From: Amoebophrya sp. A120
Taxonomy: Eukaryota; Protista; Dinoflagellata
Assembly: GCA_905178155.1 (NCBI GenBank)
Contig: CAJINV010000007.1
Location: forward strand, 1,519,341-1,583,340
DNA length: 64,000 nt
Direction of reading: 5' to 3'
The translations under genes were made by a program, and so were the position numbers. Below, piece by piece: positions 1 through 64,000 of this stretch (position 1 is its first letter; every line of letters begins with the position of its first letter). The notes beneath the pieces are model-generated. The model saw only the letters and a list, made by a program, of their open reading frames with translations, searched no databases and was not told the DNA's origin.

Positions 1-2071
1 GAAAGCTGCTGCTACTGGTGGCCCTGTTGATACTACTGATAGTACAACTACAGCAGGAGCTGCAACAGCGGCAGTGGACCCGCAAAGTAAAACCACGAAG
101 ACGCAACAGCAGGCTCCTCCGGGTAAGATCTCTACGACACTGCTGGCAAACAACAACAATAACGTAGGAACACCCGCAGAGATCAACATAGACATACCGA
201 GAGCTGCTTCTTCGAAAACGGCAGCGGGGCCACCACCAATCGTGCCACCTAGTAGACGAACCACGAAGGCGAAATCTTCACCGGCAGACGAGAAGCAGAA
301 CAAGATACAGTTCAATAGAAATTTGATCCAGCCCGAAGTGAACATCAATGCGTCCCACCCGGGGCTGATCGTCGATTTGACCGCCTCCCACGCGATTATC
401 GCGGTGGACACGGCGCCGAACGAAAAGGAGAAACTGTTTGAAGTGGATCCGCTGACCGGGGCGGTCAACTGGAAGAACCCCATGAGCGAGAAGTCCATGG
501 CCGCGAAGCGCGCGGTGGACTACGCGGCCCAAGACGTCGGGGAGACGAAGCAGTTTTGGCAGCAGATGGTGCAAACCGGGGGGAATAAAACGCAGGCGAT
601 GAAGATGGTGACCGCACGGGGGCCAAAACAAGATGGAGCAGGAAATAAGACCGTCAAATTTGGCGCAGCTCAGGATTACGAGCCGACTGCGGTTCATCTC
701 GCAGAAGAAAACGTGGCGGATATGACGTACTTATATTTATTAGCATAGCAAACCTTACGTAGTGTTTTGTGATTTCATGGAAAAATACTAGTTTGACTTT
801 GGCACGAAAAGTAGCACTTTTTTTCTCTAAAAAATGATCTTCTGCAGCTTCTGCCTGTCATCGACTTGTTTATGTTGATCTATCAAAAGTTAGTAGAAGG
901 AAAATCAGAAACCAAAACTCCACGAATACGAAAACGAATCACTTTCACAGCGCATCCCAGCTGGGTGCCCAGGGTAAAACAGTTCAAGTTTTCCGCAAAA
1001 CCAAGACCGGACGGGGGACGCAAGCTCCCCGGGAAACTGAGTTTGTGCTCCTGCACCTGCCGCAGGAATCCCAAACGGATATTCTGCCGGGAGGCGGGCC
1101 TCAGCGGAATATGCGGCGGAAGCGCGGCCCTTTGTCAACGGATAACTTGTACGGGAACCCCCAAAGTTATGGACTTCTCAAATGTTACATTCTCAACTGT
1201 TACATGAATTTGTAATGCAAGACTGGCAAAAGTGAAAGGAGGAAGATTGCGCCTTTTGCATTACAAGAAGTTTAGCGCAGATTCAGATGCTGCTTAGCCC
1301 TTCCGAGATTTGTCATGCGAAGCAGCTCGATCATCTGCCGGCTGAAGGTGCTTTTGCATGACAAATTCATGTAGCAGTTGAGAATGTAACGTTTGAGAAC
1401 GCCATAAAAGTATGAACAAGATAAACGGGACGTTTCAACCCACCGCTACGCACCTAGTACAAACCGGACGACCTGCGAATTACGGCAGTATGGAGCCGAA
1501 CTCGTCTCGGCCGAGACCAACGCGAGACCCCTCCGATTCCGGCACGATTTTGCTGATCATTGTGTGCGTCGTGGCGGGTTTGGCACTGGTTGCGGGGATC
1601 GTCGTGACGATTGTGTGCTGCAGTAATTACGCGGCGGATTCGGGCCCTGCTTCGTCGGACACCGCGACAACGACTATCGGAGCAGCTGGTGCTGTATCTT
1701 CACCTCCAAGTGCTGTGTTGCAGCTTGGCGATGGAAGGCAACGTGGCGAAACCGAAAGAAAGTACGGCACTACTGGTGAGGACCGTAGTACTTCTAGTAC
1801 GGCCGCACTAGTACCTGCAGAACGTCGTAGTACAGAGACACAGTTGTCAGCAGCATCTGCGGCCGCACGAACCGATGCGGAAGATTCCCCGCCGGGTGAG
1901 AAAAATACGCAAGGGCAAGAAGTAGTACCACGTGCCGAAGATTCTGCTGTATCGTGGAGTCAATTCATCCAAGGAGAAAGTACACCGAGAACAAATAGCT
2001 ACTTGGCACTGAAAAAGCGCCACCAGAGAAGAGCCCGGACGGTGGTCGTCAAGAAGGACGTCGGCTTGTGA
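1..2071 (+). CDS. 5'-truncated gene, low-complexity single-pass membrane protein; exons <1..726, 951..1167, 1412..2071
   Basis: Frame open from the window start. GT-AG intron 727-950 joins in phase (AC|C). Removing introner 1168-1411 gives DNLYGNPQS-MNKING. TM segment ILLIIVCVVAGLALVAGIVVTIVCC. Confidence 0.7.
727..950 (+). other. Canonical GT-AG intron
   Basis: GTACTT...TTTCACAG, AT-rich, phase-compatible with flanking open frames. Confidence 0.7.
1168..1406. mobile_element. Introner, family B (TIR TATGG.TTCTCAAA.GTTACATTCTCAACTG)
   Basis: ~50-bp imperfect TIR; perfect DR AAAGT at 1163-1167 and 1407-1411; homologous to 41457 and 54016. Confidence 0.9.
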
Positions 2072-3104
2072 AGGGGCGTGTCTTGTTTCGATTTCCTTTT
2101 CATCGGTAGCTACAACTTCTCGACATGAATTTCAATTTTTCATCCTCTCCCTGACCCTGCAGTAGCTACCCGCCATGTTGAGTAAGTACGCTTATACTAT
2201 GTAAAGTAGTTTCTCCATTTAGATTTATCGGAAAGGCTTCCAGTACGGGAAGCTTACCTATGTATACTTCCCCTCGATGAAACAAAGTCAAAGTGTTTTG
2301 TCTCTGGAACGAGCACCCGTTGGTTGCACGAAGTTTTGTGTCTGGAGCAGCAATGAAGTCAACACGGTATAATTTCGAATGGAGCGCCTGTACGGCGCTG
2401 GGCTTTTTGGTCGGATCCTACTAGCCGGCACCTCCACGCCTGATATTTTCTCGACCTCGAGGCTCCACGTCCAGCTCGTTGAAGTTGAAAACGTGTACGT
2501 TATACTGGAAAAATCTGTGATAATTGCTTATGCTTCGTTGAAAATTGAATCTCGGTAGAAAGTATGGAAAGTTAGTCGGATTGTGCCGTGTGTTGTTTTT
2601 CCCTTCGGTTTGTGCCGTGCATTCATTGTTGCGTTCGCAACTCTTCGTGCCAAGAATTGACGGTAACTTTCGTCGCGGCAGGACTCGTCTTTCGTTCGTA
2701 CCACCTCCGCTCGTTCGGCTTCGGTCAAGCAATGTTTGTGTTTGGTGCTTCACAGCTGGTGACTTCTTGTACCATTTTTTGTGTGAATACTTCTCACTTT
2801 TGACTCGCTCAGCACGTGACCTCCAGGCTACCCGCAACAGTATATTTTAGGCGTTCTAGTCACCCCGAAGTCGATAGAGATATGGATGTGAAAGCTCTAC
2901 TTCTTACCCCCTTTCAAATTGAATTTTCATCATCGAAAATAAAAGCAAGTTCCTCAAAAAACCCAACTTGCTAAGCATACAGGTTCAACATTTCCGATCT
3001 CGGTAGAAGTTGTTTTAGAGTTTTTATTCCCCCCAAGTAGTAGTTCAACATCAACATCAACAACATCAAAAGTTAAAATCAATTGTCTATCTGCATGAGG
3101 GAGT

Positions 3105-6100: not shown

Positions 6101-7404
6101 TGAAAAAGAGAATCATGCAAGTACCAGTCCTGCGTCCGCCGCCGCCGAGCAAGAACTTCCACCCGGCGGGGGCCCCGGCGCCGCGATAGTGGATCTGCCG
6201 TTGCCGACCTTCGACGAGATAGACGCGGAGGCGAAGGTGACCGCGGCTCTGTTGTTGAGTAGCACCACCACGAGCCCCCGCACCGCCAGTCCGGAGCCCG
6301 CGAAACTTGCCGACCTGGTGGCCGAGGGCGAGACTTTGCTGCACGAGGACCTGGAACGAGCCCACATCGACGAAAGCGAGGAGGGCAAAATGAACCTCGA
6401 GCGCGCCAGCCAAGCCTCCACTACCAGCGCGTTTTTGCGCAGGAAAGAGAGAACCAGCACCGCCCTGAAACCAATGCGGCAGCTCTCCATTCCGGAGGGG
6501 GAGTGGTTACCCAGAAACTTAAACAAAGTGCAAGGGGTTGTACTAGGCGACCAAGAAATCGCAGCCGCCACAGCCGAGGACTTAGAGCAGGCCGTCCGCG
6601 CCATGGGGAGCGGGATCAGCATCGGGTCATCAGCTTCTACTGGTAAAAATGGTGCTGCTACGCAGGGACCTCCACTACAGAAGCTCCAGCAACTCCTTGC
6701 GCTGTTGGATCAAGAGGAAAGTGGTACACCAAGTAGTGGTGCAGTACTTCTTTCTGGCAACAACAACAAGCGCTCCTCGAACAAGTTTACTGGCGAAGAT
6801 GATGATGATGCTTATGATGATTCCGAAAACGACGAGGACATGGACAATAACATGCTGGGTCAGGACGTGGTAATCGCGGTGACACTCTTGCAGAGACTGG
6901 CGAGGCTCGGGAATGGGTCGGTGGAAGCGATGAGCGACATTTTGGACGGGCTCGAGCGCGACCAAAACGTCTCGGGTTTGACCGGCGTGGACATCTTCTG
7001 GGAACACGAACACATGGTCGCACGCATTCTGCGCGAACACGTATTGATTTTTAGGCCCCTGCTGTTTTCACATTTTGGGTTTTCGTTCCCAGAAGACCTT
7101 CGCAACTACTCGTATGGTTCTGATCACCTGTAGATGTAGCACTTCTACTTCGGTAGGAAGGCGGCCACTGCTTTGAATTATGGGGTAGCACGATATTGAT
7201 AGAGATAATCGCTTGCTGCGCGCTAGCGCCTTTTTACATTATGTTGTGATTTTGATAAACATAAATACAACACCGAAAATACAGGAACTCGCGCGGCCGG
7301 CTTTCGGAGATGCGTACCACAGCCCATTTGACCCACTGTCTCCGATATCCCCAGCAAAAACAGTAAGAACTTCCTGGCACGCTGGGGATGCATGTGATGC
7401 ATGA
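3105..7404 (+). CDS. Large low-complexity, partly coiled-coil hypothetical protein (~1350 aa); exons 3105..7040, 7285..7404
   Basis: 1342-aa ORF. Putative phase-0 GT-AG intron 7041-7284 joins REH|ELARPAF. Last exon is tentative. Confidence 0.7.
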
Positions 7405-7770
7405 CATTTGTGTACTTGTTCGTATTGTTGTCATGAGTCGGACACCTCTCTTTGAGGTGGTAGTTTTTCTTTTCTCTGAATGTAGTGTACTCGTTCCGTT
7501 TCCATGCAAGAGCGTGCAGGCAGTTTTTGCAGTGGATAGCCGAGTTTAAGGTCTCTCGGTGCAAGGTCAAGTTGAACGTGCAGCATATGCGGCAAAGGAG
7601 TCGGTTGTGGTTCGAAGATTTTCACAAGACCAGCTTCATAGACGTAGTGTAGGCAGTCATAAATTAGGCTTTGCTCCTCATTTTTTCAGTACTCAATTCG
7701 TAACTATTCTTTCAAAATTATTGTGTTGATCTCTTTCTCTTCAGTGTATGTTTCTGTCGGAGTGCCAGCA

Positions 7771-8813: not shown

Positions 8814-11212
8814 ATGTCCTGGGTCGTGTTGGCGCCGGTGTGGTGGGTTTTTCGCAAAATGGACGAAGTTGTCGATGAGTACACCGACCACAGCGGTAGC
8901 TATCCACTCCTAGTCCATCCTTCCATTTTGTGAACATACAATTCCCAGGTTTTTCATTTGAAGCTTATGTGGTCTATTACTATTGTGCATGAATATACTT
9001 ACTTATCTATGAGAAGTCATCTTGCTCAGTGGCCAACAGAATAGATACTGTACAACTCTGGCGTTGTCCGCATACTCTAGTGTTGAAGGCACAGAGGTGC
9101 TACCAAGTTTTTCGGAAGTCAAGGCTCTTTGTGTAAGTATGCTTGGTGATGATCATGACCACAATGGGGACTGAAAGGATCCCGCTTGCAATTGCGGACC
9201 CTGTAGTTTGTTTGAGGAATTGGATATAAATGTAAGGCCATTTTGGTTTTGCTGGGATAACCCTGAGGAAATCGACATGAATGCCCCGATCAGACTGGCC
9301 CGGCAGGAAGAAGAAGAAGATGAAAACGCGAGGAAGTGTTTCTCGCGCTGTGGACGATTTATTTCCTTGCGAATGATGATTCGACTCACGCTCTTTCTCC
9401 TCCTTACTGTTCTTGGTGCGCTTTTTTATCTTTTCCTGTACTCGTCCGGCCATAATGTTCAGACGAGTTGCGCAAACGAAGGAACAGGTTGGCCGTGGTG
9501 CTATCTTTTGCAACAAAAAAGCTCCACTGAGTCGTGGTCCGGTACTAAACGTGAAGACGCACAAGAAGCTGGTACGTCGAGCGGGGATCATGGTACCGTG
9601 GGCGGCCAGCAATGGGTGGGCGAGCGGGCACATGTTGACAGGGATCCGCAGTATGACTTCGTTCCGGAAGGGACGGAGATGGACCACAAGAAGAGCCCGG
9701 TTCTGACTGGGAATGGTGATCATATGAAGCATCTGCCAAAGCGTGAATCTGATCGCCAGGCTCCACCTGCAACAATCAAAAACGGGGAGGACGGAGGCAG
9801 TAGCCTCCCGCGGCCGCCGAAGATCGCACAGGACGCAGCTACTGCTGGCGCCACTTCGGCTGGGGGGGACAAAAATAAACAGCACGGAAAAATGGCGCCG
9901 AATTTTTTAGACGAAAACGCATCTTCCAGGACCGGGAGACCATCAAACCGGGGCGGATTCGGGGAGCTCTTAAAAAATGCAGCTCCGGATGATGAAACGC
10001 CGGCGGGAGAGAAGGTACTAATTGATAGTGATCCGTATGAATATGAGGAAATCAATTTCGAACTGTGTCACTGTTTTAAGCGAAGCCAATCAATCTCGGA
10101 CTTCATCGTCCTCTTTGTCGGTGATTTCGTCCAAAATTAACAAACAGGCGACCCCAGCACAAGAACCAGGCTCGGATCTGCAGCTCGGAATCCCGAATAC
10201 TGAGGATCCGGGGGAGGGAAAGCATCAAAAGCCGCACGATCAAAATGTGCTCGAAACACACGAGAACCACGGGGAGACCACGAGCGAAGAACGACCGCAA
10301 ATGAGCCAGGGCTCTCAGGGACTCCAGCGCGCTGGGGCAACTTCAAGTGCTCCGGGGAGGTCTGAGTTTTCCTCGGGCTTTTTGGAAATTGTCCGACGTC
10401 ATACTGCTTGTTTATTTCCTGCTGGTTCTTCTAGCTCGTCGGAATCGGTGGATCCAACTACAGCAACACATGAAGAAAAAGAAAAAGAAGCAGAAGAAGC
10501 GCCAGCATCTACTCCACGAGCAATGACGTATGAGGAGGGCGTCCAGATGCTGCAGGAGCTGATCGTTGAGGAAGTCGGAAAAGCTGACCACAAAGCCGAA
10601 AAAAAGGAAACAAAAGAAAAGATGGGTGACCTGTTCCCTAAGACCATCCAATTCCTACGGATGGAGGACACCAAAAAGATTTTTCTGCTATGGGGCCAGT
10701 ACAAGGCTGAGCTACATGATCAACCGGCGGAAGCTGCGAAGATGGAACGAAGAGAAGGTGACTCGACCTGGGATATCGTCCAACGTGCGTTGCAAGGGGG
10801 GGGGGAGAATGCCGCCGACGGTTTGCGCCGTCAGGGCCAGTTCCTGGCTCTCAGTGGGACAATCGCAACGACGTTCGTGGACAGTGTCAGCAAGAGCCAC
10901 GAAGAACATCTGGATCAACTTGAAGGGATCACTGCTGTCCTGAAATCAAAAGACGGACAAATCCTCGCGTTTGGCGATCGTGGCCTTCTCACATGGTATG
11001 AAAATGCTCAGCGGCAACATGCTGGGAAGTATCGGATTGTCAAAGGCGACGATCCAGCAGAGCCAGATGGAGAAGATGTGAGGTCCCTGTACCAAAATGA
11101 AAAACTTCGCCTCCGCCCCATATTCAAAAAGGAATTTCTCGTTCCGGATTTGCGTACACAGATGAAGTTGTCATGTCAGAACGTAACAGCTACGGCGAAA
11201 GCGAATACATAA
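8814..11212 (+). CDS. Putative membrane-anchored or secreted protein (~680 aa), paralog of 11577-14281; exons 8814..8895, 9045..9132, 9207..10014, 10148..11212
   Basis: Three phase-compatible GT-AG introns (first two tentative; alternative ATG at 9277). TM LTLFLLLTVLGALFYLFLYS. C-terminal domain FPKTIQFLRMEDTKKIF. Confidence 0.6.
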
Positions 11213-11576
11213 GGCTGCCAGGCATGGGAAAGCGCTCAGCAGGAGTCCAATGCCTGTAAGTGCAGCTCAACAGGAGTCCACTGCTTTGCGTGGAATATCA
11301 TGACAAATCCCCAGAAAGCCAGGCATCGGCTGCGTCTCTTTGCCTTCTATTGTTTAATCATACGAATTCAATAATATTTTTGGACACAAATGATCCGAGA
11401 AAACCGGCTGGCCTGATCCTGATAGCGTCCGCGCTGGAAGGAAGCAGCCGCGCCCGTATGCGCGCGGCCGTTTGACCATCCGCCTTCAACCGGGAACCTT
11501 GGTCTTCTTCAGGCTGGAGGGAAGAGTAGCACGTAGCAGCCCGCCAAGGGACATACTACCAGCATCATCTTCACGC

Positions 11577-14281
11577 ATGAGGGGTCTCCGCGTGAATATG
11601 GGGAGGGGGGATTTTTGTCGCAATACCCGGGCAAAACTAGTGCCGCTGACTTTAATTACCGGGTATTCCACTTATATGACCATGGTCATTGCAGCAGCTG
11701 CACCACCAGCAGAATTGGGTGAAATTGGCCGAGGACATGTTGACTTGCGGAAAGTCGCCGACATGATCATGAGTGAACACGTACTAGAACGAACTTGCCT
11801 AGCCGGTGCCGAAAGCGAGGCAAAAAATCTGCTATCCCTAGAACCAGGGAGTCAGAATGTTCCCTCGTGGAAACAAGAACTCGGGCAATTTCTCCGAGCG
11901 GTCGAACCCGATGCACATGTTGAGAAGAAGGCGGAGCTGCAAATGCCTCACCGCGCTGCACTACCTCCAAACGTGGTGGGGTCGTCACCTTCGTCCTCCT
12001 CGGCCGCAGCCGCGTCGTCTGCTGGGGATTCACTGCGACCACACGAAACACCGATCCCTGATGCTGATGGGCTCTCTCTTTCCGAACCATGGAGAACGGC
12101 CGAGCCGGTCGCTCCCGGAGCGCCAGGCTCGGGTCTCCCCGCAGCAGTAGCCCCGCTTCCATCTTTCGTGGCAGGAGCGGCAGGACGGCGACCTGCAGGA
12201 AGAGCAACACCAGGAGCCGGAGGGCCAGCTGGGCCGCCTCAAGAATCGCAGCGGCTTCTCCTGCAGCAACGCGGCCAGGAGCCTTCCCCTTCGCACATCC
12301 CAACCAACCGCGCAATCGGCGGAATAAACTCACGCAACGAGGCGCAAGGGGGCCGTGAAACGCAAGGGGTGGCACCGGGGGAACTTGGCAGTGCAGGCGC
12401 GAATGGGCGGAAAGCCGGTGGCGGGTGCTGCGATAGTTTTCTCGAGCACAAGCCGGCAGTTTCCAAAGAGGGACAAGATACGAAGAAAAAGCTTCAGCAG
12501 GGAAGAGACCCGGATGGGGATGATGAGTTTCTCGAACACATGGATGACCCAGACGACGAAAGACTCGACCAAAATCAAGACTTTCGAGAACTGGAACGAA
12601 ACACGACCGAGGAGCCGTCCGCGTTTGCTTCCAGCTTTTTAGCTGCTGGGTTGTGCCCTTCGTCGCCGGTGGAAGAACCGGAACCCCCTGCCCCTCCAAC
12701 ACCGCGCCAGCCTCGCCCAGTAGTTGTAGTAATACGAGCTGTAGCCGATAAGTACGACGATGAACTTGAGCAGGTCGCCAAGACGGAACTCGACGATGAT
12801 TTTTTGACTGCGGTGCAAGTCCTTGGATGGAATACAGCTATCTCAACTCATCCGAAAAATCTCAGCGTTGACATTTCAACCCCCAACGCTGGGGAATTTA
12901 TCTCAACTGCCGGCACCTCGGTGCCTCCAGCTGCATTGGTTTAGGGCTTCGGGCTTGGGTTTGGGGTTTAGGGTCGTCGCCGGCCGGCGGCGGCTGCCCG
13001 CCCGCAGAGTCTCTTCTCGCCCCCTCTTCTTGTGCGCGCCCTGTGGCCTTTGTTTTTTGGCCGTGCACGCGTCCGCACCTCCGCGCCCGCGCTTGTCTGG
13101 CGTTTCTTCCCGCCGACCCATTCGCCATCCCACGGCAATTGCTCATGATGATGATCCGCATGCGTGACGTGGGTCGTTGAGATTAATTTTTGGGAGTGGT
13201 TGAGGCCCTCGGGGTCGTTGGGATCGAAGCGTTGAGATAAAAGAATTGAGATTCCTGTATGCCATCCCAACTCCTTGATTCCGTCTGTCGACGAAAATTG
13301 CTGCAATTGACTCACGATCGGCAAGGAAACTTGCTGAAGCCTGAAGATGGAGAAACGACGCTCGAAGCCTACTTCCCGACGCTGTTTGAATTTCTCCGCC
13401 ACGAGGACACTAGATCGATTTTTCGATTGACTGGCCAGCTGTTCGCGGAGGCGGAGAGAGGCGGAGAGGCGGATGCAGCTGCAGCTGCGATGCGCAGAAA
13501 TGCAGGGAAGGAAGCGCAAGGACATGAAGAAGTTGATGGGATGAAGTTCCAAAATACTTTACAAAAAGTGTTTGAAAAGCTCGACCCGCTGTCGCCAAAT
13601 ATGAGACAAGATGATTGCGAATCGCAGGTGTGGCCCTTGTTTTTAGAAAAAGATATGCGCGGGAAAGGCAACGGCGCGTATCAAACTAACTGGATCGGCC
13701 GCCTGTGTGTCGCGGCTACAACGTTCGCTGCGAAGCTGCAAGAGGCGCCCAGCATGGAGGACAGCGTCGCCGGCATCGGTGATTTTCTGCGGAGTAGTGA
13801 TGGCAGAATCCTGTTTCGAAGCTACGGCTTGCCGTATTTCAATGACAAGTGTGGAAAGGATCTTGGCGAGGAAACCAATGGTGGAGCAAGCGACTATGTT
13901 GACTGTCCGCTTCGGGAACTTGGTGTCCGCAATTCGAGAGTTATGGTGCTGTATACCATGGCACAAATGATCATCCGCGTACTAATACGGCTGCAGGTGC
14001 AGAAGCACGCGGAAATCGTCGAAGAATGCAACCACGACCGCGACCTCGCCAGACAACTTGCAACCGAATCCTTTTATCGTGCCTTCACAGCGGCCACTAC
14101 CCCGTCTTTGGGTTCCGAAGAGCCGGTCCGCCGGCAGTTGAGATGGCTCTTAGCTGCGAGAAACGATGCGCTTAAACAAAAAGACGCTCAGTCCAAAAAT
14201 GAAGACCAGACAGCAGGAACGACCCCTACCACCCCCTTTCGCGTTGAAGACGGTTATCTGGGCCAGCTGCTCGGTTTCTGA
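11577..14281 (+). CDS. Putative secreted protein (~750 aa), paralog of the upstream gene; exons ~11577..12818, 13271..14281
   Basis: Two ORFs joined in frame by removing 452 bp between the 9-bp repeats (TAVQ-LLDSVCRRK). N-terminal hydrophobic stretch; SFLE/EFLE motifs. Confidence 0.7.
12825..13267. mobile_element. Atypical MITE-like intronic element with 9-bp direct repeat
   Basis: Imperfect TIR GGATGGAATACAGCTATCTCAA / TTGAGATTCCTGTATGCCATCC; DR CAAGTCCTT (12816-12824) / CAACTCCTT (13268-13276); subterminal TCTCAAC/GTTGAGA repeats. Confidence 0.75.
12938..12973 (+). repeat. Degenerate telomere-like (TTTAGGG)n array
   Basis: TTTAGGG CTTCGGG CTTGGG TTTGGGG TTTAGGG. Confidence 0.6.
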
Positions 14282-14504
14282 GATGTGTAGTCTCATTCCC
14301 ATTGTCACCGTAACAGAGTAGTCAGTCATTAATTATGCTTTGACCATGTATGATCATTTCACTTTGATTTCAGTAATTAAAATTAGTTCACTCAATGTTA
14401 GGATGTTAGGAATTTTCATTTCAGTAAGAACGCAGTAGTTGAGGGTTTATGTTTAGGATGTTTAACTTTCGTAGATTTCTTTACTTCAGCAATCAGCCCC
14501 CTCT

Positions 14505-51100: not shown

Positions 51101-54100
51101 GAGCGAGATCTTGTCTTCCAGGTCTTCCAAGACAAACAAATTTTCGGCGAACAGCTGCTCACCCTGGACGAACAAAAATTGGACAGTATGGGGATCACAA
51201 CGTTCGGCACGAGACGGCATTTGAGCCTGGCGATCCGGGATTTGAAAGCGGATATGGACCAATCCGGGTCAAACAGTATGTCGAACACGAGTTCTGCGAG
51301 ATTAGCCACCCCGAGCCTGAAATCCGAGTTCTCCAGCCGCATGGGCGGTGGCGTTGCAGGAGCAGTACCTCCTGGTGGTGCGGCAGCCAACAACATGATT
51401 TTGAAGGTCGGAATGCACACCGCGCCGAACTACACCTCGTCAAGTGCGACGTCCGCAAACGGCATCCGGAAAGTGGAAGAATCCTTAGGGTTCGCGCCCT
51501 CTTCCAGCCCCAGCCTAAGCACCGTGAATGGCAGGATGAACAACAATGCTGGCGCGCGGTCGCGGTCTCCCGTCGTGGCAGGGGGAGCGACCACAGGTAG
51601 TACCAGCAACAAGAAGCCGGTGCTTCCCGCGGCGAAGATCCAGGGACTCGCGCCCTTAGCGCAGGTCACCAGTCCGCCCGCCAGTCCGAAGCAGGGCGGC
51701 GGCAGCGGAAGAAACTCGCCGGTTGGGCCGCAATCCCCGGTGTCGCTCGTGCCCGCGATTTTTGACAGTGCGGTGCCGGAATTGCGGAACATGTCACCGC
51801 GATCCTCGTCGCCCTTAGCGAAGGAGCGACTGTTAGACTTCAAGCAACCGGTGTTGAAGGCGAAAGTCCTATGGGAGTGACCAACTCGTCCCCTTCTTGT
51901 CATGCAAAATACCGAAGAACCCAGGCCAGGCTGTGCCTCTGCGCACTGTTTCTTTTATGTCAAGCTCTGTCAGCCCAGCAAATAGCACCACACTCCTGTG
52001 CAAATTGGTCATGCAAAACCTGCATTCTCGCTGACGCTTGTATTGCCGTTCATGCTACACAAGTGTAAATGAGCAGAGGGAGCAGGGGGAGTTGTGCACT
52101 GCCATAAGTCGAGTCCCCCTCCTTGAACCCCATCGCGCCGATCAACACAAGCAAGCAAACTATGCATTGCAAATAGGACGAAATGTGTCTGGGTCTGGAA
52201 CTGGAAGGTTGTACTTAATATGTGACGCGTCCCCGCCGTCCCGCAGATAACGCAAAAACTTGCCTATGCCTTGCGCGGGTAGCACAAGAAGTCCTTCTAA
52301 AACAGTAAGTATTTTTTCTCATGCGGGATATGCATAGCGAAGCCCTTAGCCTTACTAGTATAAAATCTGTGAAGATGGGCCTTCACCCTGTATCCCAGGA
52401 TTGCTCGTGGAGAATCCGCATGACAAACTCGTGCACTCACCCGGTCCCAGACATCTTTGCATTTGATACAGACGAAAGAGCAGGGGTCGAGTTCCGGACA
52501 GCGGTTCCCGCGGCTCGCGCTACCGCAAATGGACTGGAACCGCGTCGTATGGAGTGCAAATATGTAGTCTGGGTCTGGAAGAGTGCAACTTGTCATGCTA
52601 AATCTGAATCATGCAAGCGTCTGTGTTGCGTCAGTCTCAGTGCTAGTAACAGCTGTCCACTTTCGGCCAAGTTCGTTGTGAGGGAGTTTCTCATGCACGA
52701 CAGGCATGACAGAGACCTCCTAGAGTCTGTCATGCTAGTACGTCCCGCATTCGAGACCTCGTGGGTCATGGGAAACCTGCGTAACAAGTTGACACTCTTC
52801 CGGGCCCAGACGTATTTGCACCTGATACGTCGCGAGCCCGGACGCGGCGCTGTCCCAACTCCGCACGGACATGATGGAAAAGCGAGCGCGTTCTCTCGAG
52901 CGCATGCGCGCGACGATCGCGAACGCGGGTTCGAATTTCGAGGCGGCGCAGAAGCAATTGGCGGGACATAACGCCACTAGTGCTGCCTCGCCGCGCACCG
53001 CGACGATCGCCGAGACGCGGTCCGCGGCAGTGGCGTCGGCGTCGCAGTTTTTCAAATCCGGCGCGGTTTTATCCAGTGCAAACATGTCTCTCGTCTGGGT
53101 CACCTGGATCTGGAAAAGTAGAACTTGTATCACTTGGCTGGCATTCGTGTGAAAATTAATCGGTGTTGCATGACCAACAAAAGATCGGCGTTTTGTGCCA
53201 TGCAGAAACACAGTTTGATGAATTTCCAATGCGCACTTCGCATAGGCATATGAAAAAGCGCCCAAAATTTTTGCCATGCTTTGCTGCACAACTAGAGAGG
53301 CTGTTGAATTCTGACCATTCAGCATCAGAAGTTTCCAGACCCGGAGGATGACAGATATTTGCAATGCATAGGTTTTAAGGGAGAACGTGGTGCAGCCGAT
53401 TGCGTCGCCTGTGTCCAGCCCGAGATTGAAGGCGGCGTTAACCGGCGTCCCGCCGTTGGGATCAGGGGATATGGTCGGGTTTGTGACGAGCGTCCCGGAA
53501 GGGGAGTACCTACCGCCGAAGTGGATCGGGAAAACGGGCTGGATTTCGGGACTGATGCGAAATATGCCGTGCAAAAGGATCATCGCACTGCAACTGCTGC
53601 CTAAGACATGCTGACATCCAATTGTTCCGGACGGAAATTTATAAGTACAGGGGGTTCTTTGTGATGCAGGTTGAGGCATGCATATGCAAGCAGGTCTGTC
53701 ATGCGAGACTGCAAGGACTTGTAAGTAGGAGTGCGAAGATTCCTTTGCAGTTGATGCGAAACGGAAAGGTGCAAGTCTCGGTTCACGGGGACCAGCCTGG
53801 GACTAGGGAAACGGCGGAAATCACGACAACCTTGCTGGTTCCGGTGACCAGGTCCGGCGCCGCGAGTCCCGGCGCGGTCTCGTCGCCGGTTGGATCCAAG
53901 GGAACAACGGCGGTCGGGGCAGGCACCGGGGTGATGATGAACAAGGGATCTGCAGTTGGGGGCGTTGTCCCTGCCGGGCTGACGAGACCGGTGTCGGCAC
54001 GACCCGGGGCGAAGATATGGCGCTCTCAACTGTTACATTCTCAACTGTTACATGAATTTGTAATGCAACACTGGCAAAAGTGAAAGGAGGAATATTGCGC

Positions 54101-55455
54101 CTTCTGCATCACAAGTTTGGCGCAGATTTAGGTGCGGCTTACGCCTTCGCAAATTTGTCATGCCGGGCAGCTTGATCGTGAGGATGATGATGGTGCTTTT
54201 GCATGACAAACCATGTGAACAGTTGAGAATGTAACAGTTGAGAACGCCATAGAAAAGCAAACCGGCGGCGGTGAGAGGTGGCGTTGCTGGGGCTCCACCT
54301 GCTGTAACATCAACTCGGCCCGGAACAGCGGGCTCTAGAAGTAGTAGTCGTGGCGCGCCGTCGCCGGTGCGGGGGCGGGTTCCCTCGCCGGTGGCGCGAA
54401 GAGGCCCTAGTAGTCCCTCGCCCGTGGCCAAAGCAAAAACACCAACTCCCAGCACTTCTGTGAGCAGTAGGCCGAATATTAAACAGGCGATGGGGAAGAT
54501 GCCGAGCACAGCTCCCGGGACTGCGTTGAGACAAGCAATTGTAGGCTCCGCGTCTAGTAACAGCAAGGCGAGCGCCACTACATTCGCTGCGAGGAGGGCG
54601 CAAGTGAAGAAGGCGTCGGCGAAAACCGCGGCAAAGAGCAAGACACCCAGCTACGCACCGCCGTCGCGCGGCAACACTGTGGGGGCACCTTCTAGTACCA
54701 CTACGCTGTCTACTAAGAACGCAGCTCCTAGTGCCACGACGAAAATGCCAGAGCCGACGCGAACGATCACGGCTTTAGGCACAGCGCCGAAGAACGCCTC
54801 GAAGGGAGAGCAAACGGCTGTGTCTGCGGGCTCCAGCAAAGTTTCTAATACGGGGTTGCTGAAAACAGGATCGATTCTGCTGCCGAGCTCGCTTGTCGGT
54901 ACTACCACTGGTGCGGCGTCCTCGAGGGGTGCAACTACTGGAACAGCGGGAGCCGGTGCACCTCCTGCGTCGAAAAATGTTGTTTCATCTGCAGCTGCTG
55001 TTCCCTCCATGGTGAAAACACCAACTCTGACAAGCACCAATGTCCAGCTGAGTTCGCCACCGAAACCCGTGTTGACGACCGGGAAGATTGGCGGAGCGAA
55101 ATTCCTCGGAAATGCGGTTCCGACGTTGTTTTACGGGGAAGAAGAAGTAGAAGAGCACGTGCTTGTTCAGGATCTTCACGATGAAAAAGTTTTCGTCGAC
55201 GACGAACCCGAAACCACCAATTATACGAATGCAACTGCAGTAGCAGTCGAGGTGGAACAAGAAGAGAAGAAGTTGAGGGACACGCAGACGATTTTGGTAC
55301 CAGCAGTTTCGTTCGTGGAGCAGGGCGAACCTGCTTTGTCTGCGGTAGTGCGGACGATCCGCGCGACGGGGACGCCGGACAAGTCGTCGAGTCTGTTGCA
55401 GCCGGCTGGTGTGAAGGAGGTGCTGAGTAGTTTGGAACGGGGGGCACGCGCGTGA
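48132..55455 (+). CDS. SAM-domain protein with a possible KOW/SH3-like module (~1500 aa, 14 exons): 48132..48598, 48801..48993, 49155..49303, 49506..49838, 49958..50136, 50296..50522, 50714..50860, 51065..51868, 52111..52160, 52474..52547, 52833..53069, 53376..53562, 53762..54015, 54257..55455
   Basis: 10 introners plus 3 GT-AG introns (49839-49957, 50137-50295, 50861-51064) give a continuous 4500-nt frame. SAM: PVADWGVEEVLQWL...FQDKQIFGEQLLTLDEQKLDSMGITTFGTRRHLSLAIRDL. Confidence 0.8.
48599..48795. mobile_element. Degenerate introner (singleton)
   Basis: TAT...ATA ends, weak TIR, DR CCGCC/TCGTC; in-frame removal. Confidence 0.65.
48994..49149. mobile_element. Introner, family E
   Basis: TIR; DR CCTCG. 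Confidence 0.9.
49304..49500. mobile_element. Introner, family E
   Basis: TIR; DR CCCTC/CGCTC. Confidence 0.85.
50523..50708. mobile_element. Introner, family E
   Basis: TIR TATGAATCGCAAAAGT / ACTTTTGCGATTTATA; DR CCGTG/CCATG. Confidence 0.87.
51870..52106. mobile_element. Introner, family G
   Basis: Imperfect TIR; DR AGTCC/AGTCG. Confidence 0.82.
52161..52468. mobile_element. Introner, family A (diverged)
   Basis: GTCTGGGTCTGGAA end and CCCAGACATCTTTGCATTTGATA end; DR CAAAC/CAGAC. Confidence 0.83.
52548..52827. mobile_element. Introner, family A
   Basis: TIR; DR CGTCG; interior homologous to 57718 and 59472. Confidence 0.92.
53070..53370. mobile_element. Introner, family A (diverged)
   Basis: Imperfect TIR; DR GGTTT. 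Confidence 0.85.
53563..53756. mobile_element. Introner, E-like
   Basis: Imperfect TIR; DR CGAAA; join MRN-GKV. Confidence 0.8.
54016..54251. mobile_element. Introner, family B
   Basis: Highly similar to 1168-1406; DR GAAGA/GAAAA. Confidence 0.92.
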
Positions 55456-56350: not shown

Positions 56351-59300
56351 ATGCGATACCGCGATCTTCCGGCAGAAGATGGTCACAGTCGTCCCGTCGA
56401 GTACAAGAACCACGAAGATGCAGGAGAGCCTACAACTTCCCCGGCCAACTTCTCTTGCCTGCAGGCCGCCAGCTCCCGAACCCGCGCCTTTGCGGAGTCC
56501 TGCGTGCAGCAAATCTGGATTTCCGGACGGACCGTTGTCGTTACCGTGCTCGATTGGTCGGAGTACGCGGGCGAGCAGTGCTTCCAGGTCAACGCTTTCG
56601 AGCGGATCGCGCAGTTCTTCCGTCAAACCGTCCTGGACCCAATTTTTCGATGCCTCCCCTTCGCGAGGAAGTTTGTGCCGAAAAAGTTCAGCGTCGCGGC
56701 GTTCCTGATCGCCTTGAACTTCGAGCAGGTCGGCCTGGGCGTGTTGTTCATCCCCTATTCCTACGTTCTGGACGGCAGCGACGTCTTTTACGACGGCGTC
56801 ACGGTCGACAGTTTGAGCGTGTGGTACGCAACGGTTGGGAGTTCCGTTGGAGAGAGGACCACAAATAGAACTACAAATACTCCTGCTGATGCAGCTGCAG
56901 CGCGAGGCGAGAATGCTGCATCGTCGACGAGGAGACCCGTACGTGGCAACGAAAAATCCTCCGGGGCAAGAACTGAGAATGTTGACATCTCACTCGAGGA
57001 CAAAAGTGCAAACCAGGTCAAAGATGCGACAAGATCGGGAGCGCACGACACTTCTTCAGCACAGCAAGATGAACCAGGTGGATCAGGCATAGAAGGAGGT
57101 CGTGTCAGCAGCACTCCCGCGGATGTTGATCATGCAGTAAAAATGCCTTCCCTCTCCGGAATTTTCGATCCAGATGATGTCGACGGTTCCATCAACGAAG
57201 TTGAACCCACTGTGACGCAAAAGTTCCTGACCGAGGCTGGACTCCAAAACGTCACCTGGCACAGCGTCCGTTCTGAACTCTACGCATTGCAAAAATATTG
57301 AGCGGGTCTGGAGGATCGCGAGATTTCGATTTGTCCTGCAACATCTCCTCGTGGACCACGCACGCCATGGTCCTGTGGAATGCACACAGAACCATCACAG
57401 CTTGTGTGAGAGGACCTTGTTCCTCATGCCTCTTCCGAATGAGAAGTCCGCGGCTCTTTGCCTATTTAGTAAGCAAGTATTGATGTTGCTGTTGGCGTTT
57501 ATGTAGGCAACTCAGATTTTTTTGTGATCGAGACTTCGTGTCGTGGCAAGCTGCATCCTGCTGCCAGACCACCCCGACATGTTTGCAAAAATGTATAAGC
57601 GCGAGGGAAGTGCGAAGTTCCGCACCTTGGAATTTTCCGTGGTCGTCGCTCTCGTCGTTCTGCTCTCTATCCGCATCTCCGACCGGCTTTCCGCCGGGGC
57701 GAAGGAAACCGAATGCTTATGAAATGTAAAAATGTCTGGGTCTGGAAGAATGCAACTTGTCATGCTAAATCTGAAGCATGCAAAAATCTGTGTTGCGTGA
57801 CTACCAAAAGTCGTCCAGTTCTGACCAAGTCGGGAGAGAGTTTCTTATGCAGGATATGCATGAGAGACATCGCACAGAATCTGTCATGCTAGGTCCTGCA
57901 TTCCAGACCTCATGGGTCATGGAAAAGCTGCGTGACAAATCGCGCACTCTTCCAGACCCAGACATTTTTACATTTGATAATGCTCGAACATCAGCAACGC
58001 TTGGGAGATGGTGTCCACTGCGACCTTATCAAATGTAAAACTGTCTGGGTCTGGAAGGATCCAACTTGTGATGCTGTCTTTCAATTCTAAGCAAATCTGT
58101 GTTGCATGACCAGCAAGACGAGGCCAGTTTGTGCCACGTGGAGAGGGTATCTCTCATGCGGAATGGGCATCACAAAGCCTTCTAAAAATCTGTGATGCTA
58201 GGCCATGCATTACAGGCTTTGTGGCTGATGCAGAATATGCAACACAAAGCTGGCAGTTTTCCAGACCCAGACATTTTTGCATTTGATAGACCTTCGGCTA
58301 CGCGCGGGAGTTCTTTCTCCAAACCGCGTACCATTTCCTCCTTTTCGTGGACTGCGTCGCCGTGGCGTGTTTTGCAAAGAAAAAAGTGTTGCAATCATGA
58401 TTGATGTGTTGCAGGAGCAGGCCCGGCAAGACGAAGACAGACAACCTTTGCAGTGTTCTTGCACGAACTGCTTGTTTTATGCGTGATTTTTCTTAGGATC
58501 TTCGCATTATCACGCGGAGAAAATTTGTGTTGCTGCAGCTCCAAGTACAACAAACGTGAAGCTGTAGCACTTTAGTTTTCTCGGGATACTTGTTTACAGT
58601 ACACGATCAACTGCTGTTTGCTCAAGGAGCTACGTATGCCCTGAAATAAATTAACCACCCCCATCCAGTTTGTCATGCAAAACATGTAAGCAGGTTCTTT
58701 TCTGCGCTTGACTTTGTCGTGTAAAAAGTGGATGGGGAAGATGGTTGATTTTCAAGGAATACTGCTCTTGGCCGAAGTGAAGGACTACCAGGCGGAGTAT
58801 GTGAATGTGGGGGGAGATGGTGGGGACCAGGTTGGTCCTGGTGGAGCAGAAGTGAGTTCGCAACCTGTACTAGACCGTAGCCAGCAAAGTAGATTTGTTC
58901 AGCAAGATGTGCTAGGTGGAGGTGCGCGAGGGGAGCAGCCATTGCAAGAACTTCTTGCACAAGCGCAGAACAACTACAAGAGCTACAACCAATCTGGCAG
59001 CACGGCGCCTTCCTCTCATCTCTCCCCCACGAGCGCGACTACATCGTCCTACTTCACTATTCAGGAAACGAAACTGTGTTATAGAAGTGCTGTTGGAGCC
59101 AGCGTGGTCTGCATGGTGACAGAGAGATCCCGTTATGCAGATGCTAGTACAGGTACGTGAAATTCTTGAAGGGCTTCCTGGCTTTCTGGCATGGCAAGTG
59201 TAAGTAACTGTGTTCTTGCCTTTTCTGCATATAAACAGTTTTTCTCTCGCATATTCACCCACTCCATCATCACCTCGAGCAAATCGCTGAAGGTATGCAA

Positions 59301-62300
59301 TGCAAAAGCATCGTACTAGTATAAATTGCATTACAAATTACCCCAGCATTACAATTCAAATTTGTAATGCTGATTTACGTTGAGAAAGAGATTTGTAATG
59401 CATAAATGCAATTACTACGAATACGATACTTTTGCACAGGATAGAAGGAGGAATTTGACAACTATGTGTCCTATCCACTGCAAATATGCCTGGGTCTGGA
59501 AGGGTGCAACTTGTCATGCTGAATCTGAATCTTAGTTACAAAAGTCTGTGTTGCATGAGTGCCAAGAGTTGTCCACTTTCGAGCACGTTGGGAGGGAGTT
59601 TCTCATGCAGGATAGGTATGACAGAGACCTCACAGAGTCTGTCATGCTAGCTCCCGCATTCCAGACCTCGGGGGTCATAGAAAACCTGCATAACATTCCA
59701 TTGACTGCTCGTCATGCGATGCACATACAGAGTTTTTCATTTCAAAAAATCAAGAAACAGTGTCACAACTTGCACTTTTCCACCAGATGACGACCCAGGT
59801 TTGGAATGCATATGTCTCAACTGTTCCGTCTGGGCGCCGTGGAATTGGATGTCTTCGTCGGGATTTGGGTTGCGGCGTCCATCCTGCTTTTTTTCCCTTT
59901 TGTCGTGAAATCCCGCGCTAACTGGCTCATGCTGGAAGTCGGCCAGAGCTACAGCAAGGGAGAGCGGGTGGGATCCGCTTTCGGGATTTTGGCGGTTTTG
60001 TGTCTGGTGTACAATTTACTGTGGCTGGTTTGCAACGGTGAGATCTTAGGGCCGGCGCAGGAAACATTAAACGGGGAGTCCTCAGACGGAGGCGGAGCGA
60101 GAACAGGAGCTTTTAAAAATGCGAGGGGGACGCGTTCAGGAGTCTCTCTTTCGGGGCTGCACTATAATCAGCAGCACCATGATATTCTTCGCGACGGGGA
60201 GGGGCTCGAGTACTTCTATCAGCGGGAAATGATAACGACAACCAGCAAGAACGCTGCGGCGAAAATGAAGATGCACGACCAAAATTACTACAGCCACGGA
60301 ACTACAAGCCGCAGCGGGTTGAAAAAAGATTTCTGGGCGATGGATAGTACTACTACTGCTGGTGCCCCCTCGCAGCTGATGTCCGCCGCCACAGCTGCTC
60401 CGTTATTTGTCTTGCAGCTACAGGAAAATGATCAAAATAAGACTCAAGGGCTTCGGCGTTCCGACGATTATAATTCCGATAATGGTCCTCGTCCTGGAGC
60501 CAGCTCCAGCACGAGAACATCTGACACCTCAACCACAGTGGCCTTCCGCACTTACTCGAGAAGCATCTTCGAGCAAATCCACACCGTGGTGGAGCTATGC
60601 ATTGCCAAAGTATCATACTCGTATGATAAGTTGCAGCGATGCATGACAAATCTAAGTCCTTAACTTTTCCAGCATGACAAATTGCATATTTTCTTCTTGC
60701 AAAAAAAATTTATTGTGATGCAACTTATACTAGTACGATACTCCTGCAATGCATAGAAGCAAATGGTCCAGGCTTTCGACAAGACTTACAAGACCGTCAA
60801 GCACCAGGCGCTCCGGTTCCGCGGGTACTGTTTGGGCATTTCCCTGCTCTTCTTCAGTTTCTTCGTGAACCATATGCATTGCAAAAGTATCGCACTCGTA
60901 TAAATGCATTGCAAATGTCCTCAGCATGAGAAATAAAATCTGCACTGCGGATTTACCTTGAGAAAAAACTTTGTAATGCATGATTGCAATTACTACGAGC
61001 ACGATACTTCTGCACAGGATAAACCACTTGGAGCTACCGTTCGTGCTCCGGCACCACCCCGTCGGGGACCAAGTGTTGAAATACGCGCAGCGACTGTCCT
61101 TCGTCTGGAACTTGGCCATCGGGATCGGCTTGGCCCAGGTGAAAAAGAACCCGAACCTGTTACTCCCGACCAGCTGGGTCTTTTGCCGGCTGTACCTGAT
61201 TGTCGCGCTTTTTTTCGCTTTGGGGACCAATTTACGGCGGCTGCAGATTTACCTCTTCATGTCCATCGCGAACCTGTCCAAGTGGTTTCTAGTCCATATG
61301 ACGCGATCCGCTGTTACAATGTCAAATACAAACGTTACTACAATAGAGTCAGTCTGGAACAATAATCTGTCTTGTGTGATCAGCATGACAGAGTGTAGCT
61401 CTACCGCTTGTATTTGCAATAAAAGTTTCTCCAGATTGATTATCATGCGGTTTGGGACTCCAGAAGAACTTGTCTGTCATGCGTACTATTCCTGTCAGAG
61501 TAGGCCAGATCTTCGTGCACTTTTTGCGTCACAGATTTTCATAGCTATTGCAACGTTTGAGAATTACAATTATGTGATTGTATTTGTAACAGGTGAGCAG
61601 GTTATAGTCCAGTACGAGAAGCGGACGGGCACGAGGGTGGTGGACGTCAGAATACCGAACTTTGAAGAACTATGGGGGTGTCAGGATCGAAATCCGCAAA
61701 ACTGAAATAATCTGTAATCGTAATGCAAAAGAGCGATACCAGCTGGAGCCCAGTTCGTTAGTGGCACATGACAAATTTTGGCAGCACGGAAATCCAATTT
61801 GTCATGCTGTTTGAGCAGAGAAGACTAGACTGCTTTTCTCATGCTATTTTAGCAGCTCTATCTCACACCCCAAAGAGGGTTATAATCGGCCTCAGATGCC
61901 TGCTCTGCAAGACAGGCACCTTGCGTCTAGCATTTCATGCATCACATCAAACTATAATTTCAACTTTGACGATTTCAATCCTGACACTCCCATAAGAACA
62001 GTTTTTTGACGAGGAAGATGTAGCCGCGAGTGACCTTCTTTTCGAGGAAGAAGTTGTAGAAACTGGTTTTACGAGAAATCCGCTTTACCCGACGAGCAAG
62101 GAAGCAGTTTCGCAGAGTCTGCAACAACCACTGCTCTCGCTATCAAAGCCGTACGACGCGGGAAGGATTTTTGAAGATGTCGCGAGCAAAAGATCGATGG
62201 TGCAAGGTGAACAGGAGCCACGACCAGAAGGTGTACCACATGAAATATTAAGACCACGAGGAGCTGGACGATCAATAGCCGCTCCTTCTTCAGTAGCACC

Positions 62301-64000
62301 AGCAGCTGCTCAGGGGGAGCTGCCGGGCATCATGAGTAGTACAACTAACACATCTTCAGACCAACTTGTGCTTGTTCCTACTTTCGCAGGAGAGCACCGA
62401 CCTGGTCTGAGTAGAGACCCGCGAGTACGAGGGTCTGGCGAAGTAGTCGATCGCGACACGACGACCAGGGACAGGATTTTTATAGACCCGAGCAGGAACA
62501 CGAACAACTACAACAAGAACAAATGGGCCACCAGCACCTCCTCCTGCTCCTCCGAGGGAGCTCCTGCAGAAGCAGAGCCCCCGCTTGTTCCGAATGAAGA
62601 TCGGAACATCAGGAACAGCTTTGGAGATCGTGACCACGACACGACCCTGCGGTCTACTTCCTCCTCACTCGTGTTGCAGCGCGGGCCGTCGTTATCGTCG
62701 TCTCGATTGACTGACCCGGTGGTCGTCGGAGAAAATGACATGATGAGCAGTGCTGTCACTGTAGTGGTCGAGAACAATAGCGAAGATGGCCTGTTTACAG
62801 CACCAGAACCCACCTCCGCAACGGGTGGACCGCCGCGCAGGAGCACGACAGTAAAAAACCTCACACATGATCGTGATTCAAAGCAAAATCTAAATCGGGA
62901 AATCAACAAAATCCCTTCACACGAGTCGTCCAGTAGCAGCGGCTTTCACACGGCAGAAGAGTTCTTCTCCGAAGATCAGATATTCGTAAACGGCACGGCG
63001 GGAAGAGTTGTTGTCGTTGGGGCCTCGTTATGAATTGCAAAAGTACTATCGCACACGTACTAATCGCAGTCATGCAACAAGACAAGTTTCTTTTCCAAGC
63101 TAGATCAGCATGAGAAATTGCATTTGTCATGTTGAGCTAATTTGTATTGCAATACTACGAGCACGATACTTTTGCATTGCATGCTTGTCCTCCTCCTCGG
63201 GATCATCCTCCAGCGCGCCAGACTACAGTTTCCTACCGTCCCTGCGCAGCGAGGGAAGTGCTGTAGCAGGGGCGGTGACGACTTCGGCTACGATGAGCGC
63301 TCAACGAGTTGTACTACAACAACCCGAGGGGGAAACGACCAGCGGGGGTGACATATTAGAAGTAGCGGCGGAGAACGTCGTAGAGCTGCATCCAGACGAC
63401 GGCGAGAATGATGTTGATATTCGAGAGCAAGAAACGCAGAATCGTCAAGAACAAGACATTCTTGGCGATGAAACGATCGGAAAAAATCACACAGTGAAAC
63501 AACAATTAATGCTACCTCGAGATCATGGACAGGAAGGTAATCATCGTGAGAAGAGGACCATTGCACCGTTGGGTCTTGTTTCAGGACCTGCTACCGCATC
63601 ACCATCTTTGCTAGGTGACGATGTTGACGACCAGGAGGAGTTATTTTCCGCCAGGCAAGAAATAAACTATAACCAGCACACAACCGCAGAACCTTCTCTC
63701 GTCGACGACGTCCCACCCAACAGAACCGCACTGCCTTTACTTTCGCACCGATCGCCGAGAGAAGCCGCGGGAGCCATCAGGAAGATCGCAGACACTCACG
63801 ACGAAGTAGAGCAGCACGAAGATCATGTGGGCGGGGAGCAGTTGTACCGGCGCCGGAACCTGCATAAAAATCCCTCGTCGTCTCGAGGCAGGACGAGCGA
63901 CAACAACCTCCTGACAGCACGACCAGACCGCATCATCCTAACCGTGGACCAACTCGAGCAGCTCGTGCTGTTTCCCCGCTCCCTATTAGAGTGCACAACT
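56351..64000 (+). CDS. 3'-truncated multi-pass membrane protein, possibly amino-acid/auxin permease (AAAP)-like; split by at least 11 introners
   Basis: AAFLIALNFEQVGLGVLFIPYSYVLDG resembles AAAP TM1. Further hydrophobic exons at ~57600, 59840, 60000, 60820 and 61100-61290. Introner joins are in frame; exon structure at 58330-58500 and 59130-59240 is unresolved. Confidence 0.6.
57281..57597. mobile_element. Introner, family A (old; orientation like 21454)
   Basis: Degenerate TIR; DR AACTC/AGCGC; removal opens a TM-coding exon. Confidence 0.65.
57718..57979. mobile_element. Introner, family A
   Basis: Near-perfect TIR; DR ATGCT. Confidence 0.95.
58027..58288. mobile_element. Introner, family A
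   Basis: Near-perfect TIR; DR GACCT. Confidence 0.95.
58635..58761. mobile_element. Short degenerate introner (singleton)
   Basis: TIR TATGCCCTGAAAT..TTAACCA..CCCCATCCA / TGGATGGGG..TGGTTGATTTTCAAGGAATA; DR CTACG/CTGCT. Confidence 0.7.
59294..59443. mobile_element. Introner, family E; equivalent to canonical GT-AG intron 59293-59447
   Basis: TIR; perfect DR GAAGG. Confidence 0.92.
59472..59812. mobile_element. Introner, family A
   Basis: Left TIR and interior match 52548; DR TGTCC/TGTCT; join NYVS-QLF. Confidence 0.85.
60596..60755. mobile_element. Introner, family E
   Basis: TIR; DR GGAGC/GAAGC. Confidence 0.88.
60873..61021. mobile_element. Introner, family E
   Basis: TIR; DR AACCA. 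Confidence 0.92.
61297..61606. mobile_element. Introner (singleton), stop-free in the host frame
   Basis: TIR TATGAC..CTGTTACAA / TTGTAACAG..GTTATA; DR GTCCA. Confidence 0.85.
61671..61994. mobile_element. Introner, family F
   Basis: TIR; DR AGAAC; homologous to 45798. Confidence 0.93.
63029..63183. mobile_element. Introner, family E
   Basis: TIR; DR CTCGT/CTTGT; downstream frame appears open to the window end. Confidence 0.87.

Follow-up and report, generated by a model that had tools for sequence, protein, structure and literature searches.

Introner elements of Amoebophrya sp. A120 are removed from RNA with one direct repeat and fit a common cut register

A window of 64,000 nucleotides (nt) from Amoebophrya sp. 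A120 (contig CAJINV010000007.1, positions 1,519,341 to 1,583,340 of the forward strand) contains 33 elements with inverted ends, typically TAT at the start and ATA at the end, that are flanked by direct repeats (DRs) of 5 nt. Positions below are those of the window, and elements are named by their first nucleotide. Fifteen elements are removed together with 5 nt, at the RNA level where contigs are available. The cuts fit a common register, 1 nt before TAT and 4 nt after ATA (-1/+4), and the U that this register places at intron position +2 is conserved at one end only. We consider it somewhat probable (roughly 55%) that the elements are removed by a relaxed spliceosome that places the 3' site by means of a ruler. 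The elements themselves are already known, being the A120 introner elements of Farhat et al. 2021 (PMC7789003). Statements on published work refer to the accessible parts of the papers cited.

Removal from RNA

Between 48200 and 54400, all 10 elements and three GT-AG introns are skipped in contigs of the runs X5, X6 and X7. All 13 joints are present in a single X5 contig (5,199 nt, depth 111.7) and likewise in X6 and X7, and five of the 13 in X4. No run is recorded as RNA, and these four are taken as transcripts because the GT-AG introns are missing from their contigs. Each of the 10 joints removes exactly the element length plus 5 nt. The spliced open reading frame (ORF) comprises 1499 amino acids (aa), and retention of any single intron leads to a stop at aa 176-1122. 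Element 46789 is absent from a further RNA-type contig (X7 record 19), which brings the elements skipped in RNA-type contigs to 11. Another four (41457, 41784, 45798 and 7346) are missing from the annotated proteins P0001 and P0002, which are both named Amoebophrya sp. A120 and are 100% and 99% identical, respectively, to ORFs of the window. Element 7346 appeared intergenic at first sight, and P0002 shows its coding location. A first-pass annotation of the window had predicted removal without GT-AG, with junctions inside the DRs. The contigs bear this out, since their joints correspond to the element plus one DR.

The 18 elements outside this set of 15 are supported as introns by frame restoration alone. 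All 33 lie inside reading frames of the + strand that reopen once the element and 5 nt are deleted, as the first-pass annotation had stated. The automatic frame choice selected the - strand for three of 30 elements (46789, 59294 and 59472) and a wrong frame for 57718 and 58027; manual reading gave open + frames for all five. A restored frame through a SAM domain, also claimed earlier, was not recovered. The Pfam SAM domain is located within 51065-51862 with no element inside it, the two pieces flanking element 46789 have no Pfam match, and the spliced and retained forms of 46789 score similarly against this SAM domain. No protein covering the junction of 24667, for which the -1/+4 register predicts Gly and other registers Ala or Arg, was found among proteins of 271-2000 aa. 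The public gene model P0001 extends into element 46789, which the RNA-type contig skips, and thus contains an annotation miss.

An apparently common cut register

Mismatches between the two DR copies were used to tell which copy remains in the message. DR positions 1-4 come from the upstream copy at 48599, 49304, 50523, 52161 and 54016, and position 5 comes from the downstream copy at the RNA joint of 51870. The sole offset common to all 10 joints is -1/+4. Of six predictions made beforehand, two were tested, and P0001 has the predicted residue in both cases (Gln at 41457, Ser at 41784). All eight elements with informative DR mismatches fit the -1/+4 register, for which a uniformly placed cut gives p=0.011. 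Taken alone, this fit is suggestive, not proof. Identity of the DRs is dispensable, as 48599 is spliced despite two DR mismatches and only 10 of 20 matches between its arms.

As the cut lies 1 nt before TAT, the intron begins with N-U-A-U, or N-U-A-C in a few cases, and its 5' end reads N-U-A-Y. In the six canonical introns of the window, GT is found at the start in 6/6, A at +3 in 5/6 and a pyrimidine at +4 in 6/6. The 5' end of the elements therefore resembles the local GUAY 5' splice site with its G freed. The fixed -1/+4 cut and the polar U at +2 appear to be new. No paper fixing the register was found in the accessible literature on Amoebophrya introners and splicing; figures 3 and S19-S25 of Farhat et al. 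may show part of it.

Asymmetric conservation of the element ends

A search for the pattern of the terminal inverted repeats (TIRs) returned 151 stretches (147 loci used), nearly all from the assembly JACKZZ01. Among the 347 elements from outside the window, 220 were oriented by codon use, and 103 with a low coding score and 24 that were ambiguous or at an edge were dropped. Of these 127, 79 were later oriented via their neighbours. Counts on 332 elements combine the 220 with the window elements and the 79 neighbour-oriented ones. Neighbouring JACKZZ01 elements share the gene strand in 137 of 141 pairs, and all traced window genes are on the + strand.

In the 220 oriented JACKZZ01 elements, the first T is never mutated and the mirror A is mutated in 11 (p=0.001). 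Across the 332 elements, the U at +2 is mutated once and the mirror base 14 times. The third position shows the reverse (10 vs 3 mutated, p=0.09), contrary to what a simple strand bias in mutation would give. In 113 of 123 cases, the strand classifier and a method based on ORFs were in agreement. A U at +2 belongs to the core signals of the spliceosome.

Published border classes provide a further comparison. The text of Farhat et al. reports no clear dinucleotide signature, and its Table S4 lists predominant non-canonical classes that are NT-NN in 9/9 cases for A120 and TT-NN in 9/9 for A25 (PMC7789003). The nine A120 classes total 20%, and the -1/+4 register puts 20.0% (stranded) or 16.6% (unstranded) of 250 elements there. 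With other placements this share is 0% (cut at TAT), 6-7% (random) or 3.6% (leftmost). A25 elements start with TTA, which together with the TT-NN classes suggests the same +2 U via a different element family (PMC7789003).

The idea that the DRs drift towards GT-AG was rejected, as their composition is flat. Sliding the borders to GT-AG is possible in only two of the 30 elements tested (53070 and 59294), in line with the first-pass annotation. Branch-like CTAAC or TGAC is found in three of five canonical introns (46531-46725, 50137-50295 and 50861-51064), with the A located 9-10 nt before the 3' end.

Mechanism of removal

In a relaxed spliceosome, the inverted end would provide positions +2 to +4 of a 5' splice site resembling GUAY, with any base in place of the G. 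The 3' site would do without AG. As +1 and the last two bases are unconstrained, the 3' cut would have to be set by its distance from the downstream inverted end. The DR would keep the protein unchanged and would not itself be read, because elements whose DRs differ at two positions still splice. The inverted ends would present the same signals in either orientation. The overhangs of 1 and 4 nt would add up to the 5-bp target duplication, so that any insertion, whatever its sequence or orientation, would be erased without a scar. The components reported for A120 include U2, U4, U5 and U6 as well as 83 of 89 spliceosomal proteins, and U1 small nuclear RNA (snRNA) was undetected (PMC7789003). 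A more far-reaching version is held at slightly less than even odds: a spliceosome without U1 snRNA, +1 G and 3' AG would read N-U-A-Y and measure the 3' cut 4 bases past the inverted repeat (IR), in tens of thousands of introns, and A25 would have arrived independently at the same +2 U.

Several observations weigh against a relaxed spliceosome acting in a fixed register. Spliceosomes normally require +1 G and 3' AG. Measured against U2-type introns, the elements have the U at +2, but G at +1 in only 70 of 250, and they lack the 3' AG; GT-AG ends occur in 7 of 250, and the composition at -1 and -2 is flat. A candidate branch A at -7 is weakly conserved (3 vs 10 at the mirror position, p=0.09). 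The route is proposed here from sequence, with no lariat, branch point or snRNA pairing observed. As to the register, some common register among the eight informative elements has p=0.097, and its upper bound depends on one RNA joint and two junctions of one gene model, P0001, which itself misses element 46789. The RNA-type runs X4 to X7 represent one sample, and contigs conceal rare forms. As to the asymmetry, the 79 neighbour-oriented elements alone show none (1 vs 0), and the strand classifier was wrong for five of 30 window elements. Table S4 depends on the tie-breaking of the aligner, and the annotated sites of Gozashti et al. 2025 lean towards gt, at, ag and ac, to which aligner preference may contribute (PMC12130899). 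Finally, most elements fold into strong end-to-end hairpins, with z down to -14.

The strong folding also speaks for the main competitor, a dedicated non-spliceosomal machine (endonuclease and ligase, as proposed for the nonconventional introns of euglenids) that would recognise the end-to-end hairpin and place its cuts 1 nt upstream and 4 nt downstream of the stem. A structure-guided ruler suits a fixed offset from the stem, and beyond +2 neither end has a dinucleotide signal. The undetected U1 snRNA of A120 (PMC7789003) and the euglenid introns with inverted ends, which are excised as circles and not as lariats (PMC11282704), point in the same direction. Pairing, however, should constrain the first T and its partner A equally, so that the one-sided +2 U (1 vs 14) is not expected from a symmetrical hairpin reader. 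Nor are G-U wobbles in excess of A-C mismatches (175 vs 201), a test that is weak as differences at the family level cancel. Matches at arm positions 4-7 are limited to 46-75% of 250 elements, and terminal pairing is predicted at 0.04 or less in four of the 14 spliced elements folded. The earlier proposal of machinery that reads structure rather than GT-AG is thus not supported, the cut being polar and fixed relative to the ends, and we regard a structure-only machine as unlikely. The relaxed spliceosome fits better, and a role of the hairpin beside the reading of sequence is possible.

Alternatively, different elements could be cut at different points of the DR at the RNA level, the register they seem to share being a coincidence in a small number of cases. 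This agrees with the p=0.097 given above, with a published description in which the splice sites vary in position relative to the hairpin (PMC7789003) and with the mixed boundary calls for A120 families (PMC12130899). The two advance predictions that came true, the polar +2 U and the NT-NN pattern of Table S4 argue against a variable cut, which is improbable.

Excision from DNA before transcription, as for the internal eliminated sequences (IESs) of ciliates, would suit the transposon anatomy. The elements are not missing from the DNA: among the joints listed, long contigs of the DNA-like run X1 include them without differences (e.g. 49092-52584, depth 26), and rare empty alleles could remain beyond these joints. 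Moreover, cut and conserved base follow the direction of the transcript, with elements inserted in both orientations. The DNA-level excision raised by the first-pass annotation is therefore very improbable.

A hairpin with a short DR is the classic setting for template switches of reverse transcriptase, but such an origin of the joints is just as improbable, as those of 54016 and 48599 use a 1-nt match and pass over a longer one, elements that fold poorly are skipped too, and retention destroys the 1499-aa ORF.

Element set and transposon anatomy

A search for TAT...ATA ends, a 5-bp DR and matching arms gave 13 clear elements at first pass. Scans with relaxed settings, a profile of the ends and homology to other copies brought the total to 33, one more than the 32 of the first-pass annotation. 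They lie within 1168..63183 and measure 149-536 bp. The 5' triplet is TAT in 30, TAC in two and TAG in one; the 3' triplet is ATA in 29, ATG in three and ACA in one, so that the reported TAT start and ATA end with a few mutated cases hold. DRs of 5 nt with no common sequence flank all 33 elements, as reported earlier, yet 15 are imperfect (12 with one mismatch, three with two) and only 18 perfect. A strict detector found 21 elements in the window and none in each of five shuffled controls, and 165 in 40 other loci vs one in the control. According to position tables, the IR of the window elements begins with TAT and seven variable bases, followed by at least three A.

Location within coding sequence, claimed earlier for every element, holds for the 33; a decayed remnant may lie outside. 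This element-like stretch (58471-58685) has no matching DR, is located between two coding regions and is possibly a non-coding insertion. Another stretch, 59174-59240, has 75% element-like similarity over 67 nt inside an apparent GT-AG intron and could be an old element made canonical.

The anatomy is that of miniature inverted-repeat transposable elements (MITEs): TIRs, a target site duplication (TSD) of constant length, short size, no coding capacity and multiple copies. The elements are likely non-coding, non-autonomous DNA transposons with 5-bp target duplications. Thus the MITE-like anatomy behind the first-pass assignment stands, and neither a transposase nor an empty site was seen. No orthologous locus that could provide an empty site was present among the 147 loci examined. 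No convincing autonomous element came from three long elements (1104, 972 and 631 bp) or from 610 ORFs scanned crudely for motifs. Farhat et al. likewise found no transposase in A120 (PMC7789003). Family 38 of Gozashti et al., which combines TIRs with Copia/Gypsy-like ORFs in A120 (PMC12130899), is a lead for an integrase-type mobiliser.

Families occur in both orientations (49:64, 14:15, 12:9, 7:6 and 5:4; 112 of 2001 edges are inconsistent in the largest), and such near-equal numbers are expected if the inverted ends give the same signals either way. Summed contig depth over the elements is very high. The motif TGT[ACG]ATGC (either strand) has 66 copies in 7,568 nt of 30 elements, e.g. in 21454-21718 and 45798-46103. 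This corresponds to 8.7 per kb, whereas exons have a single copy in about 35 kb, or 0.03 per kb. It is present in 162 of 168 JACKZZ01 elements, is common to unrelated families and may, judging by its distribution, be a site for a transposase or a splicing factor. That GT-AG introns share the motif was rejected (0 matches in five introns).

Features of the window

All features are listed in Table 1. Between 11626 and 21453, no TAT...ATA elements were found. The region 12940-15900 contains telomere-like degenerate repeats (about 12940-12975), a T-rich tract (14500-14700) and odd composition beyond, and is possibly a mobile element.

Table 1 Elements, control introns and host gene in the window, and two long elements from other loci. 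Two DR sequences are given where the copies differ.
Feature	Position	Strand	Evidence of removal
Element, DR AAAGT	1168..1406	+	frame restoration
Element, DR TCCGA/GCCGA	7346..7538	+	skipped (+5) in annotated protein P0002
Element, TAC start, DR CCCTG/CCCGG	11090..11625	+	frame restoration
Element, DR TCAAC, inverted ends 20/20	21454..21718	+	frame restoration
Element, DR ACTCC	22333..22796	+	frame restoration
Element, DR GAGGC/GAGCG, mismatches at DR positions 4, 5	24667..24945	+	frame restoration
Element, DR CGCAA	32709..33020	+	frame restoration
Degenerate element, TAG start, DR GCCAG	33586..33858	+	frame restoration
Element, DR GCATC	37792..38112	+	frame restoration
Element, ATG end, DR CTGCT/CTGCA; position 5 from downstream copy	41457..41734	+	skipped in P0001, Gln
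Element, DR CAGCG/CAGCA; position 5 from downstream copy	41784..41940	+	skipped in P0001, Ser
Element, DR TCACG	45798..46103	+	skipped in P0001
Element, ACA end, DR ACAAG	46789..47013	+	skipped in RNA-type contig (X7 record 19)
Gene with 10 elements and 3 GT-AG introns; spliced ORF 1499 aa, SAM domain	48132..55455	+	
Degenerate element, DR CCGCC/TCGTC; cut after DR position 4 or 5	48599..48795	+	RNA-type contigs
Element, DR CCTCG	48994..49149	+	spliced in RNA-type contigs
Element, DR CCCTC/CGCTC; cut after position 2-5	49304..49500	+	RNA-type contigs
Canonical GT-AG intron (control)	49839..49957	+	RNA-type contigs
Canonical GT-AG intron (control)	50137..50295	+	RNA-type contigs
Element, DR CCGTG/CCATG; cut after position 3-5	50523..50708	+	RNA-type contigs
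Canonical GT-AG intron (control)	50861..51064	+	RNA-type contigs
Element, DR AGTCC/AGTCG; cut at or before position 4	51870..52106	+	RNA-type contigs
Element, DR CAAAC/CAGAC; cut after position 3-5	52161..52468	+	RNA-type contigs
Element, DR CGTCG	52548..52827	+	spliced in RNA-type contigs
Element, DR GGTTT; slidable to GT-AG	53070..53370	+	spliced in RNA-type contigs
Element, ATG end, DR CGAAA	53563..53756	+	spliced in RNA-type contigs
Element, DR GAAGA/GAAAA; cut after position 4 or 5	54016..54251	+	RNA-type contigs
Degenerate element, TAC start, DR AACTC/AGCGC	57281..57597	+	frame restoration
Element, DR ATGCT	57718..57979	+	frame restoration (manual reading)
Element, DR GACCT	58027..58288	+	frame restoration (manual reading)
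Element, DR GAAGG; GT-AG at -1/+4 register	59294..59443	+	frame restoration (manual reading)
Element, DR TGTCC/TGTCT	59472..59812	+	frame restoration (manual reading)
Element, DR GGAGC/GAAGC	60596..60755	+	frame restoration
Element, DR AACCA	60873..61021	+	frame restoration
Element, DR GTCCA	61297..61606	+	frame restoration
Element, DR AGAAC	61671..61994	+	frame restoration
Element, ATG end, DR CTCGT/CTTGT	63029..63183	+	frame restoration
Long element, 1104 bp, intact inverted ends and 5-bp DRs, no recognised transposase ORF	L019:505-1608		
Long element, 972 bp, intact inverted ends and 5-bp DRs, no recognised transposase ORF	L073:7012-7983		

Relation to known systems and significance

The A120 introners of Farhat et al. 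have IRs of 8-20 nt, in which TAT and seven variable bases precede a run of A, DRs of 3-5 nt and a length of about 240 nt (PMC7789003). The window elements share the strain, the IR pattern, the DRs, the removal from RNA without GT-AG and the organization into families, which agrees with their earlier identification as described introners. They differ from the published account in a DR of 5 nt, the fixed -1/+4 cut, the polar +2 U and the repeated internal motif; border positions were given as unknown or variable, and the splicing mechanism was left open (PMC7789003). Gozashti et al. describe DNA families with TIRs in A120 that share the TIR class (superfamily unknown), measure 150-340 bp and have many non-canonical sites. 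In the 21 of 58 rows accessible, TSDs of 2-5 and conflicting calls of co-opted or carried splice sites do not give a single register (PMC12130899).

Nonconventional introns of euglenids likewise have inverted ends, TSD-like repeats and borders without GT-AG, and they pair near the ends in a fixed register, as most A120 elements may do. Their pairing involves +4..+6 with -8..-6 (CAG/CTG) and their products are circular, whereas the stem of the A120 elements would start at +2/-5 (PMC11282704). The MITE-derived introns of Fritillaria borealis share TIRs and TSDs, are removed by an adapted spliceosome and favour AG-AC and AG-AT borders, in contrast to the A120 elements, in which only +2 to +4 are constrained and the 3' end is free (PMC11282704).

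Excision of these introns is stated to be open in print (PMC7789003, PMC11282704), as the first-pass annotation had noted, and the fixed register and polar U make this question directly testable. The register names the first and last base of the intron, one near-invariant base and a region in which to search for the branch point. The -1/+4 rule also corrects gene models, such as P0001 at 46789, and lifts the 5-nt ambiguity of A120 intron borders. If removal is spliceosomal, splicing would proceed without both end guanosines and without AG selection. If true, this would explain how a transposon could fill coding sequence at no cost to the protein.

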